Of a stretch of DNA of 58,137 nucleotides, positions 3,588-20,534 are shown one piece after another. Made by a program: the position numbers and the translations under genes. Source of the stretch: a virus; IMG/VR virus record IMGVR_UViG_3300045988_043439, positions 1 through 58,137 of that record; one strand, written 5' to 3'. Each line of letters starts with the position of its first letter. The stretch's first letter is position 1. The notes beneath the pieces were generated by a model. That model was not told the DNA's origin and made no database searches. It saw only the letters and a program-made list of their open reading frames with translations.

Positions 3588-3622
3588 TTTTTGTACAGCC
3601 AAATTAAGCCAAAGTTAGAACA

Positions 3623-4264
3623 ATGAAGCCTAATGAAGCCGAAGAAAGGAAACGTATGGAGAACAGCAAAATCCATGAAGCTCTGATGGCTGTTCAGTCA
3701 GAGTTGAAAGCCCCAAAGGGGCAGATGAACACATTTGGCGGTTACAAGTATCGCTCTTGTGAGGACATTTTGGAAGCGGTTAAACCAATTTTGAAAGCAC
3801 ATGGTTTGCTTCTCACCCTTTCAGACGAGCCTAAAGTGTTTGAAGGGTGGCATTACATCGAAGCGACCGCGAAGGTGGAAGCTCTGGATGGTGAATGCGT
3901 AACAGTCACAGCTTACGCAAGAGAGCCGGAGCAAAAAACAAAGATGGACGCAGCGCAAGTGACTGGAACGTCTAGTAGCTACGCCAGAAAGTACGCTTTG
4001 AACGGCCTGTTCTGCATTGACGATACGAAGGACGCTGACACGGACGAGTACCAGAAGCAGACCGCAAGCAGGGCAAACAAGCCTGCGCAGAAGCAAACGG
4101 AAGCGGAAACCATCCCCCCATGCGCTTGCTGTGGAAAGCAGTTGCAGCCTATTCAGTACAACAACCGCACAGTCACTCCGCTGGAAACTGCAAGAAGCAC
4201 AAAGAAACGCTTTGGGCGCGTCCTGTGTTGGGACTGCGCTCAGAAACAGCCGAAGGAGGGCTAA
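3623..4264 (+). CDS. erf: ERF-family single-strand annealing recombinase with a C-terminal zinc ribbon (start may be the ATG at 3656)
   Basis: ALMAVQSELKAPKGQMNTFGGYKYRSCEDILEAVKPIL...VTGTSSSYARKYALNGLFCIDD is an ERF signature; sits upstream of ssb. Confidence 0.8.
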   Translation: MKPNEAEERKRMENSKIHEALMAVQSELKAPKGQMNTFGGYKYRSCEDILEAVKPILKAHGLLLTLSDEPKVFEGWHYIEATAKVEALDGECVTVTAYAREPEQKTKMDAAQVTGTSSSYARKYALNGLFCIDDTKDADTDEYQKQTASRANKPAQKQTEAETIPPCACCGKQLQPIQYNNRTVTPLETARSTKKRFGRVLCWDCAQKQPKEG

Positions 4265-4267
4265 ACA

Positions 4268-4687
4268 ATGCTTAACTCTATCGCAATTCAGGGACGTATG
4301 GTTCACACGCCAGAAGCTAAGGTCACGAAGTCTGGCAAGGATGTTTGTACGTTCAGCATTGCTTGCGACCGCCAGAGCGGCGGTCAGAAGGAAACCGACT
4401 TCTTCAACTGCACCTCATTTGGCAACACGGCATTGTTCGTTTCCAAATGGTTCCAGAAGGGCAGTCTGATTTTGGTGACTGGCAGCATCCAGACCCGGAA
4501 GTATACCGACAAGCAGGGAAACAACCGCACCGCAACGGAAATCATGGCAAACAAGGTTGACTTCTGCGGGGGCAAGTCGGACAGCAAACCCACTGATCGG
4601 GCGCAGGATGCACCGCAGAACTACTCTCAGGGCAACGCAGATGACTTCTCTGTGATTGACGACAGTTCTGATCTCCCTTTTGACTAA
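4268..4687 (+). CDS. ssb: Single-stranded DNA-binding protein
   Basis: OB-fold pattern MLNSIAIQGRMVHTPE...FFNCTSFGNTALFVSKWFQKGSLILVTGSIQTRKYTDKQGNNRTATEI and an acidic tip DDSSDLPF. Confidence 0.9.
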   Translation: MLNSIAIQGRMVHTPEAKVTKSGKDVCTFSIACDRQSGGQKETDFFNCTSFGNTALFVSKWFQKGSLILVTGSIQTRKYTDKQGNNRTATEIMANKVDFCGGKSDSKPTDRAQDAPQNYSQGNADDFSVIDDSSDLPFD

Positions 4688-4726
4688 CGGTTACGCTACC
4701 GGGACAAAAGGCGAGAAAGGAACACT

Positions 4727-5137
4727 ATGTTTTACCGTCCGAAAGTAGTTCGATGCCGCCTGAAAACTGGCGGGAAAAGCATCGAACAAATCAAAGAATC
4801 TCACAAGGGGCAAGGGCTGGTTTATCGGGATTTCGAAAGTCTCCAACAGATGTACGATGCTTTTTCTGGATTGATTGTTGAACTGTCCCTTTGGGACTAC
4901 GACAACCACGAAAGCTATCATCTCGAAAGCTGGAAGCCAGAAGATGATGAAAAAGTTATGATGGGCGTTTATTACGCAGAGCAAACGCATCCATTCCCTC
5001 GATATAAGAACGATTTTGAAAAGTTCAAAGCAGTTTGGGAAGAAAAGAAATATGAATGCGAAGGCGCATCTCTTGTTTTTGAGCCAGCAGATGTTGAAGA
5101 ACTTGAAACCATCTGCGAAGAAGTTTCTTCGTCCTGA
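4727..5137 (+). CDS. Hypothetical protein
   Basis: 136-aa ORF with RBS GAAAGGAA; no motif recognised. Confidence 0.5.
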   Translation: MFYRPKVVRCRLKTGGKSIEQIKESHKGQGLVYRDFESLQQMYDAFSGLIVELSLWDYDNHESYHLESWKPEDDEKVMMGVYYAEQTHPFPRYKNDFEKFKAVWEEKKYECEGASLVFEPADVEELETICEEVSSS

Positions 5138-5190
5138 CCGCCTACCTTATATAAGAGCTGCGCTATCTGGCTGGACGGGCGTTTGGAAAG

Positions 5191-6591
5191 ATGAAACACT
5201 TGGGCGACATTACAAAGATTCACGGCGACCAGATAGAGCCTGTGGACTGCATCACGTTCGGCAGTCCGTGTCAGGACTTGTCCATTGCTGGACGCAGGGC
5301 GGGACTTGCCGGAGAACGCTCTGGGTTGTTCATGGAAGCGGTTCGAATCATAAAAGAAATGAGGTCAAGCACAAATGGACTGTATCCAACTTTCGCTGTT
5401 TGGGAAAACGTGCCCGGAGCTTTCAGCTCCAATGGTGGAGAAGATTTCAGAGCCGTGCTGGAAGAACTTGCCCGCGTGGAACAGCCAGACGCTTCAATTC
5501 CTAGACCTCCGAGGGGGGGCAGATGGAGCAAAGCTGGAGCAATCGCCGGAAACGGATGGTCTCTGGCTTGGCGACAGCTCGATGCTCAATATTGGGGAGT
5601 TCCCCAACGCCGAAAGAGAATCGCTCTTGTCGTGGATTTTGGAGGACAACGTGCCGCAGAAATACTATTTGAGCGCACGAGCCTGTCAGGGAATCCTTGT
5701 GAGAGCATCCCGGCGTGGAAAACCTTTGCCCGAACTCCTGAAGCAAGCGTTGCTGGATATGATCGAATGGTGGAATCCGGGAACTCTATCACAGGTGATG
5801 CAGAAAGTGAAGGAACAGGAAGGTCTGGAGGAAAAGGAACTGGACGAGTATTGGAATCAGACCATCGAGAGACTTCGACTCGATGCACAGAACCCGCAGC
5901 CTACACTCTAAAAATCCGTTCTGGATGTGAGGGTGGCGGTAAAGGCGCTCTGGTTCAAACTGAATTGAGCGCAACGATTTCTACGTTGCAAGACCAGGCG
6001 TTGTTTCAGCCTGTTGTTTATGATGCTCGTGGAAACGGCGATGGAAAAATCGTACCGACCATTACAGGCGACCACGAAAACAGAATCACAGATTACACGG
6101 CTATTGTAATCGAACGCAAGACCTTCAACGAACAGTCGTTCAGCCACTACAAGGAAAGCGACAAATGCTCAACCTTGAAAGCGAAAGCAGGGAACATCGG
6201 CAATGGCAGCGAGTGCCTGATTGCAGAGAAAGCCATCCGCTGGATTGTTCGCCGCTTGACCCCTGTTGAATGTGAACGGCTACAAGGCTACCCGGACGGA
6301 TACACCGACATTGGTGACTGGACGGATAGCAAAGGAAAGAAGCACAAATACGCTGACAGCCCACGGTACAAGGCTCTAGGCAACTCAATCGCTTTGCCGC
6401 AGTGGTTTTGGTTGGTGCAGAAGATGCGCCCTTACCTAAAAGAAAAGCCTACACTGGGCAGTCTGTTCGATGGTCTGGGTGGTTTCCCTCTGGTCTGGCA
6501 AAGAGCATACGGCGAGGGCACTGCACGCTGGGCAAGCGAAATCGAAAGCTTCTGCGTAGCTGTAACAAAAAGGAGATTCGGCGAAGAATGA
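5191..6591 (+). CDS. DNA (cytosine-5) methyltransferase with non-canonical motif order (motif I/II at the C-terminus)
   Basis: GSPCQDLS (motif IV, 5260-5283), ENVPG (VI), QRRKR (VIII), RRLTPVECERLQGYP (IX), GNSIALP (X), then LFDGLGGF (motif I, about 6463-6486) and ASEIE (II). Confidence 0.85.
   Translation: MKHLGDITKIHGDQIEPVDCITFGSPCQDLSIAGRRAGLAGERSGLFMEAVRIIKEMRSSTNGLYPTFAVWENVPGAFSSNGGEDFRAVLEELARVEQPDASIPRPPRGGRWSKAGAIAGNGWSLAWRQLDAQYWGVPQRRKRIALVVDFGGQRAAEILFERTSLSGNPCESIPAWKTFARTPEASVAGYDRMVESGNSITGDAESEGTGRSGGKGTGRVLESDHRETSTRCTEPAAYTLKIRSGCEGGGKGALVQTELSATISTLQDQALFQPVVYDARGNGDGKIVPTITGDHENRITDYTAIVIERKTFNEQSFSHYKESDKCSTLKAKAGNIGNGSECLIAEKAIRWIVRRLTPVECERLQGYPDGYTDIGDWTDSKGKKHKYADSPRYKALGNSIALPQWFWLVQKMRPYLKEKPTLGSLFDGLGGFPLVWQRAYGEGTARWASEIESFCVAVTKRRFGEE
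5375..5911 (+). CDS. Overprinted 178-codon ORF in the +1 frame inside the methyltransferase gene (expression unproven)
   Basis: Stop-free through MTase motifs VI-VIII; the translation looks protein-like (EFPNAERESLLSWILEDNVPQKYYLSARACQGILVRASRRGKPLPELL). Confidence 0.3.
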   Translation: MDCIQLSLFGKTCPELSAPMVEKISEPCWKNLPAWNSQTLQFLDLRGGADGAKLEQSPETDGLWLGDSSMLNIGEFPNAERESLLSWILEDNVPQKYYLSARACQGILVRASRRGKPLPELLKQALLDMIEWWNPGTLSQVMQKVKEQEGLEEKELDEYWNQTIERLRLDAQNPQPTL

Positions 6592-6806
6592 TTACTTGTT
6601 GTCTCAACTGCACATCACGCCACCAAGCCTGTCACGACACCTGCGAGAAGTACAAGGCAGAGAAGAAAGACTTCGAGGAGCGCAAGGCGTTCGTGCATGA
6701 GCTGAACCACAGCCAGAGCGTGTACCACCGCAACTATGAGGACAAGCACCGAGAAAAAGAAAAGAAACGGTTTCTCGGAAGTGAATTTAGAGGTGAACGA
6801 GGATGA
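6588..6806 (+). CDS. Small Cys-rich protein
   Basis: MITCCLNCTSRHQACHDTCEKYK...; ATGA overlap with the MTase stop. Confidence 0.45.
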   Translation: MITCCLNCTSRHQACHDTCEKYKAEKKDFEERKAFVHELNHSQSVYHRNYEDKHREKEKKRFLGSEFRGERG

Positions 6807-7018
6807 ACGAATGGAGAGAGACAGCAAAGAACCTTCCGACAAAGGAAGACGGATTATTTGTGCTTTCTGTATATTTCTCTGAAAGCATGAATAAGTGGCG
6901 AATCTTACAGCAATATTGGGAGGTGGTCAAATTGTTTCCTGATGAGTACCCGTTTTGGATGCCAATGCCTGAGTTGCCTGAAATGTTATACCGAATCAAC
7001 AAAGGACTTCGTACATGA
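6803..7018 (+). CDS. Hypothetical protein (DUF551-like by eye)
   Basis: 71 aa, overlaps both neighbours by 4 nt; W/P pattern ...FPDEYPFWMPMPELPE. Confidence 0.4.
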   Translation: MNEWRETAKNLPTKEDGLFVLSVYFSESMNKWRILQQYWEVVKLFPDEYPFWMPMPELPEMLYRINKGLRT

Positions 7019-7548
7019 ACACCGGCAAGCAGTTTGAAGCGGACTTCAAGGCATCCATCCCATCCGATGCGTGGTGCTACCGCCTGAAAGACAGTGCTAC
7101 CACCTACTACGGCGGCAACGAGAACCTGTCCTTTTCCATCGACAACATCTGCGACTTCCTTGTGTACCGTTACCCGATGAACCACCTATTTGAGCTGAAA
7201 ACCATTGAAACGCCCTCTATCCCTCTTGAAAAGGTGTTCGGCAAATACGACAAGGCAAAGTGCAAATACCGCAAGGAAAAGCACATCACAGATATGGTGG
7301 AAGCAATGGGGTACAGCGGTCAGACCGCCCATGTGATAGTCAATTACAGGGCGGTCAGCCGCACCTTTGCAATCCCTGCCAGCAAAGTTCTGGCGTTCCG
7401 CTATAACGAGAGCCGTAAGAGCATCCCTTGGCAGTGGGCAGAGCAAGAGGGGATAGAGGTCAAAGCAAAAAGGCTGCGTGTCCATTGGCGGTATGACGTG
7501 GACGGGCTGCTAAAGAGATTGGAGAAAGAACATGAAAAAATGGACTAA
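7015..7548 (+). CDS. PD-(D/E)XK nuclease, RecU-like Holliday-junction resolvase
   Basis: GKQFEADFKASIP...DFLVYRY...LFELKT matches the D...E-x-K arrangement and RecU-like layout; lies in the recombination module. Confidence 0.5.
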   Translation: MNTGKQFEADFKASIPSDAWCYRLKDSATTYYGGNENLSFSIDNICDFLVYRYPMNHLFELKTIETPSIPLEKVFGKYDKAKCKYRKEKHITDMVEAMGYSGQTAHVIVNYRAVSRTFAIPASKVLAFRYNESRKSIPWQWAEQEGIEVKAKRLRVHWRYDVDGLLKRLEKEHEKMD

Positions 7549-20081: not shown

Positions 20082-20534
20082 CGCATAAAAACGTTGCACA
20101 CGCAACATACAAGCGTTGCGTCCTCCAACACCCGCCGCCGTCCTGATCTGCCCGGTGCAGCTTGCCCAGCGTCCGGGCGTGTGTACCTTGCCTTGCGTTG
20201 CCTTACCTGGTATTTGCCCGCCCTGGTTCTGGCACGGCCTGCCCTGCTGCCTGTGCTGTGCAGTCTGTCCGGGTGCGCTGGGGCTTGGGTCTCCACCTCT
20301 GGGGTATATGGGACGAGCCGGGGGTGGGGTGGTCGACACCTCGCGTAGAAAAAATTCAAAAAAGGCGTTTTCCGGAGGTTGTGTTGCCAACACCCACCCC
20401 ACCTTTACAAAACGAAACCCATCCGATTGTGCAATTCTCCAAAAATTCCAAAAAATACAAAAAGACCCCTTTCGGAGCCTAGATTGTGGTATAATCAGCT
20501 AAAGGCTATGTGCCAAAGAAAGGAAGAATCGAAA

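Follow-up and report, generated by a model that had tools for sequence, protein, structure and literature searches.

Can a C5-cytosine methyltransferase (C5-MTase) that begins at motif III, and carries motifs I and II only at its C-terminus, be a complete enzyme? The question is raised by an open reading frame (ORF) at positions 5191 to 6591 of IMG/VR virus record IMGVR_UViG_3300045988_043439, a stretch of 58,137 nucleotides that is referred to here as the window. Among circular permutants of C5-MTases, Type B denotes those that begin anew between motifs II and III and have motifs I-II after motif X on the same chain, and this is the arrangement found in the window MTase. Judged from its sequence and that of its relatives, the ORF quite probably encodes one complete and functional orphan C5-MTase of an uncultured human-gut phage, and would represent a natural Type B permutant. 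The phage was found in human-faecal contigs only, and relatives occur in metagenome-assembled genomes (MAGs) of Clostridia; its host is probably one of the Clostridia.

The ORF, on the plus strand, encodes 466 amino acids between an ATG start and a TGA stop. The presence and conservation of both the catalytic motifs (IV, VI and VIII) and the S-adenosylmethionine (AdoMet) motifs (I, II and X) place its product among the C5-MTases. PF00145 matched it with 114.4 bits (E=9.5e-33; cut-off, 22) in four separate stretches, and TIGR00675 did so with 105.4 bits, above a cut-off of 100.65. Alignment with M.HhaI using phmmer paired residues 4-89 with HhaI 58-136 (motifs III, IV and VI), residues 126-147 with HhaI 148-169 (motif VIII), residues 350-372 with HhaI 268-290 (motif IX), and residues 424-465 with HhaI 16-55 (motifs I-II). 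The resulting order is III-IV-VI-VIII-TRD-IX-X-I-II, with TRD standing for the target-recognition domain. In HhaI numbering, the chain stops at 55 and starts at 58, which locates the break within 2 residues. The features of the gene are as follows, where pN/pS is the ratio of nonsynonymous to synonymous polymorphism and pLDDT is the per-residue confidence of an AlphaFold2 (AF2) model.

5191-5220, plus strand: new N-terminus, MKHLGDITKI, in the motif III region; its ATG is the internal Met of canonical relatives (…RFPxMKHLGDI…)
5260-5274, plus strand: motif IV, GSPCQ, with catalytic Cys27; invariant, and aligned with the PCQ of HhaI
5404-5418, plus strand: motif VI, ENVPG, with Glu72; E72 and N73 invariant
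5605-5619, plus strand: motif VIII, QRRKR; Q139, R141 and R143 invariant; equivalent to HhaI 148-169
5641-5790, plus strand: main-frame linker after motif VIII; a passenger here, where the +1 frame is selected; AF2 pLDDT below 35
5911-6249, plus strand: variable region with the presumed target-recognition modules; length differs among relatives; pN/pS 0.157
6250-6294, plus strand: motif IX, RRLTPVECERLQGYP, from the HhaI alignment and conservation in the family
6379-6399, plus strand: motif X, GNSIALP; G397, N398 and S399 invariant
6400-6462, plus strand: motif X helix and a linker of ~10 residues (…MRPYLKEKPTLGS); AF2 helix 402-415 and strand 422-425
6463-6486, plus strand: motif I, LFDGLGGF, the AdoMet-binding loop, now C-terminal; L425, F426, G428, G431 and F432 invariant; equivalent to HhaI 16-23
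6532-6546, plus strand: motif II, ASEIE, with the acidic E450; S449 and E450 invariant

The sequence around the break accounts for both ends of the permuted protein. Between motifs II and III, canonical relatives read …VTKRHFPxMKHLGDITKI…; the permuted genes start at the internal Met of this canonical form and finish …VTKRRFGEE, with the X-to-I linker joining the ancestral C-terminus to the ancestral N-terminus. When the two parts were re-joined in silico by placing residues 417-466 before residue 1, the PF00145 score increased from 114.4 to 129.8 bits and the number of matching stretches fell from four to two, residues 7-145 now covering profile positions 4-132 unbroken across the junction. 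The profile mapping that an earlier, sequence-only reading of this DNA had proposed as a check, together with the M.HhaI alignment, therefore bore out the permuted motif order that it had described, and showed the re-joined sequence to be continuous. That reading had further held that no motif I is encoded upstream in any frame and that the preceding gene is unrelated, and both statements proved correct: no FxGxG-like motif was found in any forward frame of 3601-5200, 75 of 77 related loci have an in-frame stop codon 12 codons 5' of the ATG, and positions 4727-5137 encode a phrog_4572 protein. Only the distance from motif II to the end of the ORF, given as about 20 codons, needed correction; 14 were counted.

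The permuted topology is not peculiar to the window. A family survey of 1.84 billion cluster representatives (clusters of 50% identity) gave 31,806 matches, and classification of the best 150 of these found 121 with the order III…X-I-II, 13 canonical, 3 with the order IX-X-I…VIII, and 13 incomplete. Likewise, 117 of 119 profile hits were permuted. The best 120 database matches shared 87-99% identity and identical ends, and were located on many independent contigs of 55-62 kb, while each of 80 viral loci with 65-98% identity spanned residues 1-466, nearly all of them closing with …WASEIE.F..AVTKRRFGEE and a stop codon. In diverse sets of 36 and 106 members, C27, E72, N73, Q139, R141, R143, G397, N398 and S399 were invariant, as were the relocated residues F426, G428, G431, S449 and E450; the residues of motifs I and II did not vary even in members that were only ~50% identical. 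Consistent with purifying selection, the pN/pS of the C-terminal I-II unit (6451-6588) was 0.169, compared to 0.24 for the linker, 0.086 for the IX-X segment, and 0.15-0.20 for the main frame outside 5641-5910. In UniProt and nr, members of the family carry automatic names only.

The main chain was modelled using AF2 with an alignment of 106 sequences. Residues 1-160 had pLDDT values of 80-95, and residues 361-460 had values of ~75-88. In the model, the tail comprises a strand (422-425), a helix (431-440), a second strand (445-448) and a second helix (454-463), which is the expected beta1-alphaA-beta2-alphaB succession, preceded by the motif X helix (402-415). The top Foldseek matches of the model were M.HhaI, M.MpeI and M.HaeIII, with E values down to 2e-7, and its best viral match, with 432 aligned columns, was a protein of 437 residues from an uncultured siphovirus, named 'cytosine specific methyltransferase'. 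Given that both native termini, N and C, lie next to each other in this fold, the relocated unit would be expected to lie beside the motif X helix. The structural check suggested by the sequence-only reading was thus answered in part: the tail is confidently predicted as beta-alpha-beta-alpha, and its packing can be inferred from confidence and secondary structure only.

Other explanations of the motif order have to be set against that of a genuine permutation. The gene could be decaying, its 5' motifs I-II lost and the enzyme inactive, with the C-terminal motifs I-II representing chance read-through of a second, truncated MTase gene. Tandem MTase genes are indeed common in related phages (adenine and cytosine MTases, as in Javan105 and NatCom_11578), but both the I-II unit and the linker are under purifying selection, the cofactor residues are invariant at ~50% identity, 121 of the 150 divergent clusters have the same architecture, and the junction matches the canonical sequence exactly; decay is accordingly very improbable, and the sequence-only reading, which had itself named such a remnant as what would overturn it, is contradicted neither by selection nor by the residues of motifs I and II. 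A misjoin or frameshift introduced during sequencing or assembly, by which a canonical 5' end was displaced, is more improbable still. Nothing favours it except the unusual motif order itself, while hundreds of independent contigs, produced from numerous samples and by numerous assemblers, show the identical architecture, conservation extends to the flanking genes, and the MTase gene is internal to contigs of 55-62 kb. It is the retention of the topology across the family, combined with the invariant residues and purifying selection, that argues against both decay and artefact, and these data, together with the re-joined PF00145 match, support the earlier claim of a genuine circular permutation. 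Several observations do weigh against a complete, single-chain permutant. The AF2 pLDDT is below 35 at residues 162-353, which include the presumed target-recognition region. A canonical position of the C-terminal unit, next to the motif X helix, is inferred from model confidence and secondary structure only. Of the ~390 homologues examined, none is a fused dimer and none has a motif I at each end of its chain. Finally, a second ORF nested within the gene (see below) might be required for activity, and the single polypeptide would then be insufficient.

As a source of new protein topologies, circular permutation is a textbook case, and the DNA methyltransferases are a classic example of it. 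Permutants of M.MpeI and M.SssI have been built, of which those of Class B, with the N-terminus between motifs II and III, were by far the most active, cp62M.MpeI being close to wild type (Slaska-Kiss et al., 2018, PLoS One; PMC5944983). A scan of REBASE by the same authors for enzymes with motif X before motif I recovered 27 natural permutants, all cut in the variable region and none of Type B, and weaker binding of AdoMet was proposed as a reason for the absence of the latter (PMC5944983). As far as they are described where cited in PMC5944983, permutants of M.HaeIII obtained by directed evolution start between motifs II and IV. The window MTase resembles the engineered Type B enzymes in having its N-terminus between motifs II and III, the order III…X-I-II, and the native termini joined directly or by a short linker. 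However, those enzymes are laboratory constructs of unrelated CG- or GGCC-specific MTases, whereas the window MTase belongs to a natural and abundant phage lineage with a ~10-residue linker of its own. The natural Type H enzymes (M.BssHII, M.Alw26I, M2.Eco31I, M.Esp3I and M2.BsaI) share with it the passage from motif X to motif I within one chain, and permutation by duplication has been invoked to account for their origin. They start in the variable region, with IX-X before I-VIII and both domains intact; in the window MTase, by contrast, it is the large domain that is cut, between motifs II and III, so that the chain starts at motif III and has VIII before IX. That the known natural permutants of the M.BssHII type break elsewhere, as the sequence-only reading had stated, is in agreement with the published scan (PMC5944983). 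Nor does the window MTase conform to the arrangement of plant DRM enzymes (VI-X before I-V), its motifs IV and VI being contiguous at the N-terminus. A report of a natural Type B enzyme, or of the nested gene, was not found in the literature. The occurrence of the Type B form in nature adds a new variant to a phenomenon already known, and contradicts the published negative.

Canonical orphan C5-MTases of the same subfamily, from phages and phage-plasmids, include the MTase of Streptococcus phage Javan105 and the N-terminal domain of the P1 Dmt protein (phrog_116), which have 50-60% core identity with the window MTase. They share with it the motifs VWENVPG, DAQYWGVPQRRRR, ILFE and RRLTPxECERLQGFPD, the nested +1 ORF, and a neighbourhood of recombination genes; unlike the window MTase, they have motifs I-II at the N-terminus and are without the X-to-I linker. 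A third topology is represented by three Type H-like relatives (P0210, P0253 and P0267), in which a single chain runs TRD-IX-X-linker-I-II-III-IV-VI-VIII and combines an X-to-I linker of the window type with the canonical FPxM junction. P0210 is a complete gene of 540 amino acids inside contigs of 7.2 kb (L088, 1637-3259; also L089 and L090). The nearest core neighbours of these three proteins are different Type B enzymes (identity, 0.69-0.75) and not one another, and hence the family appears to have switched topology more than once. Repeated change of this kind is what a fusion of tandem copies followed by trimming would predict. The Type B topology most likely arose in this way, through an in-frame fusion of tandem copies that was later trimmed, whereby the conserved internal Met of canonical relatives would have become the start codon. 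In the absence of a fused-dimer intermediate, the case for duplication is only indirect. Permutation by duplication, as put forward in the sequence-only reading, is thus compatible with the canonical and Type H-like relatives and their common X-to-I linker, but the enzymes with two copies of motif I that it had invoked did not appear among the homologues examined.

A further Type B gene was observed in a Caproicibacter sp. MAG (L096, 2983-4536). Its C-terminal I-II unit is more like that of canonical relatives (FPLAGAMNGIIPLWSSEIEPYPIAVTKSRF) than the window type (FPLVWQRAYGEGTARWASEIE), and, from this sequence likeness, the Type B order may have arisen independently in this gene.

The variable region is itself subject to rearrangement. 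Near-identical phages were found to differ within 5911-6249 by the insertion of whole modules of 40-52 residues (P0083, P0096 and P0107), which suggests an exchange of modular target-recognition units. The C5-MTases of Bacillus phages SPR, phi3T and rho11s are orphan, multispecific enzymes of canonical topology with a long, modular variable region. The window family gains and loses modules as they do, the likeness being confined to modules that change in length.

The MTase gene also contains a second coding frame. Three elements are concerned:

5375-5911, plus strand, +1 frame inside the MTase gene: nested ORF of 178 amino acids with the conserved domain …LSWILEDNVPQKYYLSARACQGILVRASRRGKPLPELLKQAL…; open in 78 of 80 loci
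5361-5364, plus strand: GAGG, a Shine-Dalgarno-like element 10 nt 5' of the nested ATG, formed by an invariant main-frame AGG Arg codon
5513-5519, plus strand: G7 homopolymer common to both frames; kept in most loci

In each of those 78 loci, the nested ORF is open from a conserved ATG, and the remaining two are variants of the G tract. The AGG Arg codon was present in 70 of 70 aligned genes, and third positions nearby vary. Selection on the two frames was compared along the gene. At 5641-5790, pN/pS was 1.13 in the main frame and 0.295 in the +1 frame, as opposed to 0.15-0.20 and at least 1.0, respectively, at both 5191-5640 and 5911-6588; over the tail of the nested ORF (5791-5910), the values of 0.61 (main) and 0.91 (+1) left neither frame clearly selected. 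Diversity by codon position agreed with this switch of the selected frame, position 1 exceeding position 3 at 5641-5790, and main-frame synonymous diversity was halved at 5375-5640, where the nested ORF overlaps motifs VI-VIII. The switch was replicated in six P1-like dmt genes, in which pN/pS over codons 211-255 was 1.45 in the main frame and 0.45 in the +1 frame. The possibility that the nested ORF is conserved merely as a shadow of the main frame was rejected, as the latter is unconstrained there both in the window family and in the P1 clade. A ribosomal frameshift that joins the two frames into the real enzyme was likewise rejected; the nucleotides of the nested domain also encode the motif VIII strand and the ILFE strand, both needed by the fold. 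From its sequence conservation, the nested ORF is very probably a real, selected overlapping gene.

In canonical relatives, the +1 frame carries the motif LSqILe..vPqKYyLS.kAC.GIL.RA..RGK.LP..L..AL. Carriers of the nested ORF include Streptococcus phage Javan105, an Acutalibacteraceae phage, Vibrio phage CP-T1, mycobacteriophage Porcelain, Pseudanabaena phage Pan4, Pasteurella phage Pm86, Cronobacter and Enterobacter phages, dmt of phage P1, and the Type H-like gene in L088. Members of all three topologies are thus represented, and the ORF was unannotated in the records checked. Counterparts were located as follows:

L081, 2489-2896: nested ORF counterpart
L082 (P1 dmt), 2222-2713: nested ORF counterpart, at ~66710-67201 of AF234172.1
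L083, 2489-2893: nested ORF counterpart
L084, 1761-2222: nested ORF counterpart
L085, 1716-2195: nested ORF counterpart
L086, 1686-2264: nested ORF counterpart
L087, 1851-2270: nested ORF counterpart
L088, 2652-3095: nested ORF counterpart

The nested ORF always accompanied this MTase family in the +1 frame and never stood alone in the phage and plasmid collections; in the plasmid collection, its domain was found solely under P1-like Dmt or dcm genes. In L085 (Mycobacterium phage Porcelain), the C5-MTase is annotated as two coding sequences, 1547-2386 (motifs I-VIII) and 2355-2747 (motifs IX-X, +1 frame), with the nested ORF between them, and a related record notes 'coding region not determined'; this may reflect either a frameshift or an enzyme that is split in nature.

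For the nested protein, Pfam, NCBIfam and a PDB sequence profile yielded no relatives at the family level, and a Foldseek search of the PDB returned no fold match (best E, 1.1). Against PHROGs, there was one weak match, to phrog_16143 ('DNA methyltransferase'; E, 0.0022). Its N-terminal half was predicted by AF2 to be disordered, and three helices were predicted. When the domain was aligned with Escherichia coli Dcm using hhalign, the best match was to the segment that follows motif VIII (293-337), a weak one (probability 1.8%, E 0.027) whose score was reached by 1 of 300 shuffles, and which is suggestive only.

The length of the G tract determines which frame is read. Lengths of G6 and G9 switch the main frame into the nested frame, and G8 leads into the third frame. 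Two of the 80 viral loci are shifted, with G8 in L058 and G6 in L062. The G6 and G9 alleles encode fusions of MTase residues 1-108 with the nested domain, 236-241 amino acids in length and found on 4-13 contigs each; one such fusion protein has 26 member sequences. This variation in length may reflect phase variation or homopolymer sequencing error. Frame fusions in the opposite direction were seen in P0132 and P0262, which join the N-terminus of the nested ORF (MDCIQLSLFGKT…) to the main-frame C-terminus (…IX-X-I-II) and are either natural or artefactual.

The overlap of the two genes invites a different view of the enzyme, namely that the main chain is insufficient and the nested protein is an obligatory partner that supplies a missing element. 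There is a precedent in M.EcoHK31I, the beta chain of which is read from an alternate frame within the gene for alpha (PMC2836561), and which, like the window gene, is a C5-MTase gene with a second, fully nested coding frame. In keeping with a two-component enzyme, the nested ORF is selected over precisely the stretch in which the main frame is disordered and a passenger, its co-occurrence with the MTase family is constant from cyanophage to mycobacteriophage to P1, the selection recurs in P1-like dmt, and its best match in Dcm falls just after motif VIII. But the beta chain of M.EcoHK31I carries the motif IX that its alpha chain lacks, whereas all ten motifs, motif IX among them, are already in the main frame of the window gene, and the nested protein matches no MTase profile. 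Its likeness to Dcm is weak, neither Pfam, NCBIfam, the PDB nor Foldseek provides a match, and its product might just as well serve in regulation or be an unrelated anti-defence protein; obligatory pairing is hence a doubtful proposition. At a similarly tentative level, the nested product may be a dedicated partner of the MTase across the subfamily, P1 dmt included, acting either in trans as a module like the canonical segment after motif VIII, or as a regulator. A phase-variable switch at the G tract, which would be compatible with a complete Type B enzyme, is unlikely to a greater degree. By this account, G7 would give the full-length MTase and G6 or G9 the fusion of ~240 amino acids, so that methylation would be heterogeneous in the phage population. 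The retention of G7 in most loci when both frames would allow its interruption, the existence of G6, G8 and G9 alleles, and the recurrence of the fusion proteins over several contigs are in its favour. Yet, a tract of G7 is rather short for slippage to be efficient, assembly errors at homopolymers are a possible source of the variants, several loci combine an interrupted tract (G4-G5) with an intact gene, and only the two viral loci noted above are shifted.

As a complete Type B enzyme, the window MTase would have the AdoMet-binding part of its Rossmann-like fold, the beta-alpha-beta-alpha unit of motifs I-II, moved from the N-terminus to the C-terminus, and catalysis would proceed as usual: Cys27 would attack C6, Glu72 and Arg141/143 would hold the flipped cytosine, and the methyl group would be provided by AdoMet. 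Its target sites would be set by the middle region of variable length. The gene is located in a recombination module with the following neighbours:

3623-4264: ERF-family annealing protein, upstream of the MTase
4268-4687: SSB, upstream of the MTase
4727-5137: phrog_4572 protein, directly upstream of the MTase and unrelated to it
6588-6806, plus strand: Cys-rich ORF of 72 amino acids (MITCCLNCTSRHQACHDTCEKY…), its start overlapping the MTase stop codon as ATGA; without a family in Pfam or PHROGs
7015-7548: RecU-like resolvase (weak match), downstream of the MTase

No second MTase was found within the window, the only other PCQ-like match being GRPCQ in a 156-amino acid ORF on the minus strand at 20243. 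A restriction-enzyme family was absent from the six flanking ORFs by Pfam, the rest of the window not having been scanned for one. The most likely role is that of an early, orphan, protective methylase; it would be made along with the early recombination module (ERF, SSB and RecU-like proteins) and would methylate the phage DNA, thereby protecting it from host restriction.

The phage family indicates that nature makes abundant use of the cut between motifs II and III, which the engineering study found to be the most active and yet absent from natural enzymes. With canonical, Type B and Type H-like relatives all occurring naturally, at 60-75% identity in the core, direct tests of permutation by duplication and of what each topology costs would become possible, and compact, naturally optimised Type B enzymes could be of use in designing methyltransferases that are split or targeted. 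The nested gene, if confirmed, would be a hidden protein in many phage genomes, including that of P1, and would make this the second MTase gene to code in two frames, after M.EcoHK31I. For the family as a whole, the three topologies (canonical, Type B and Type H-like) would mean that its C5-MTases have changed the topology of their chain repeatedly in nature.

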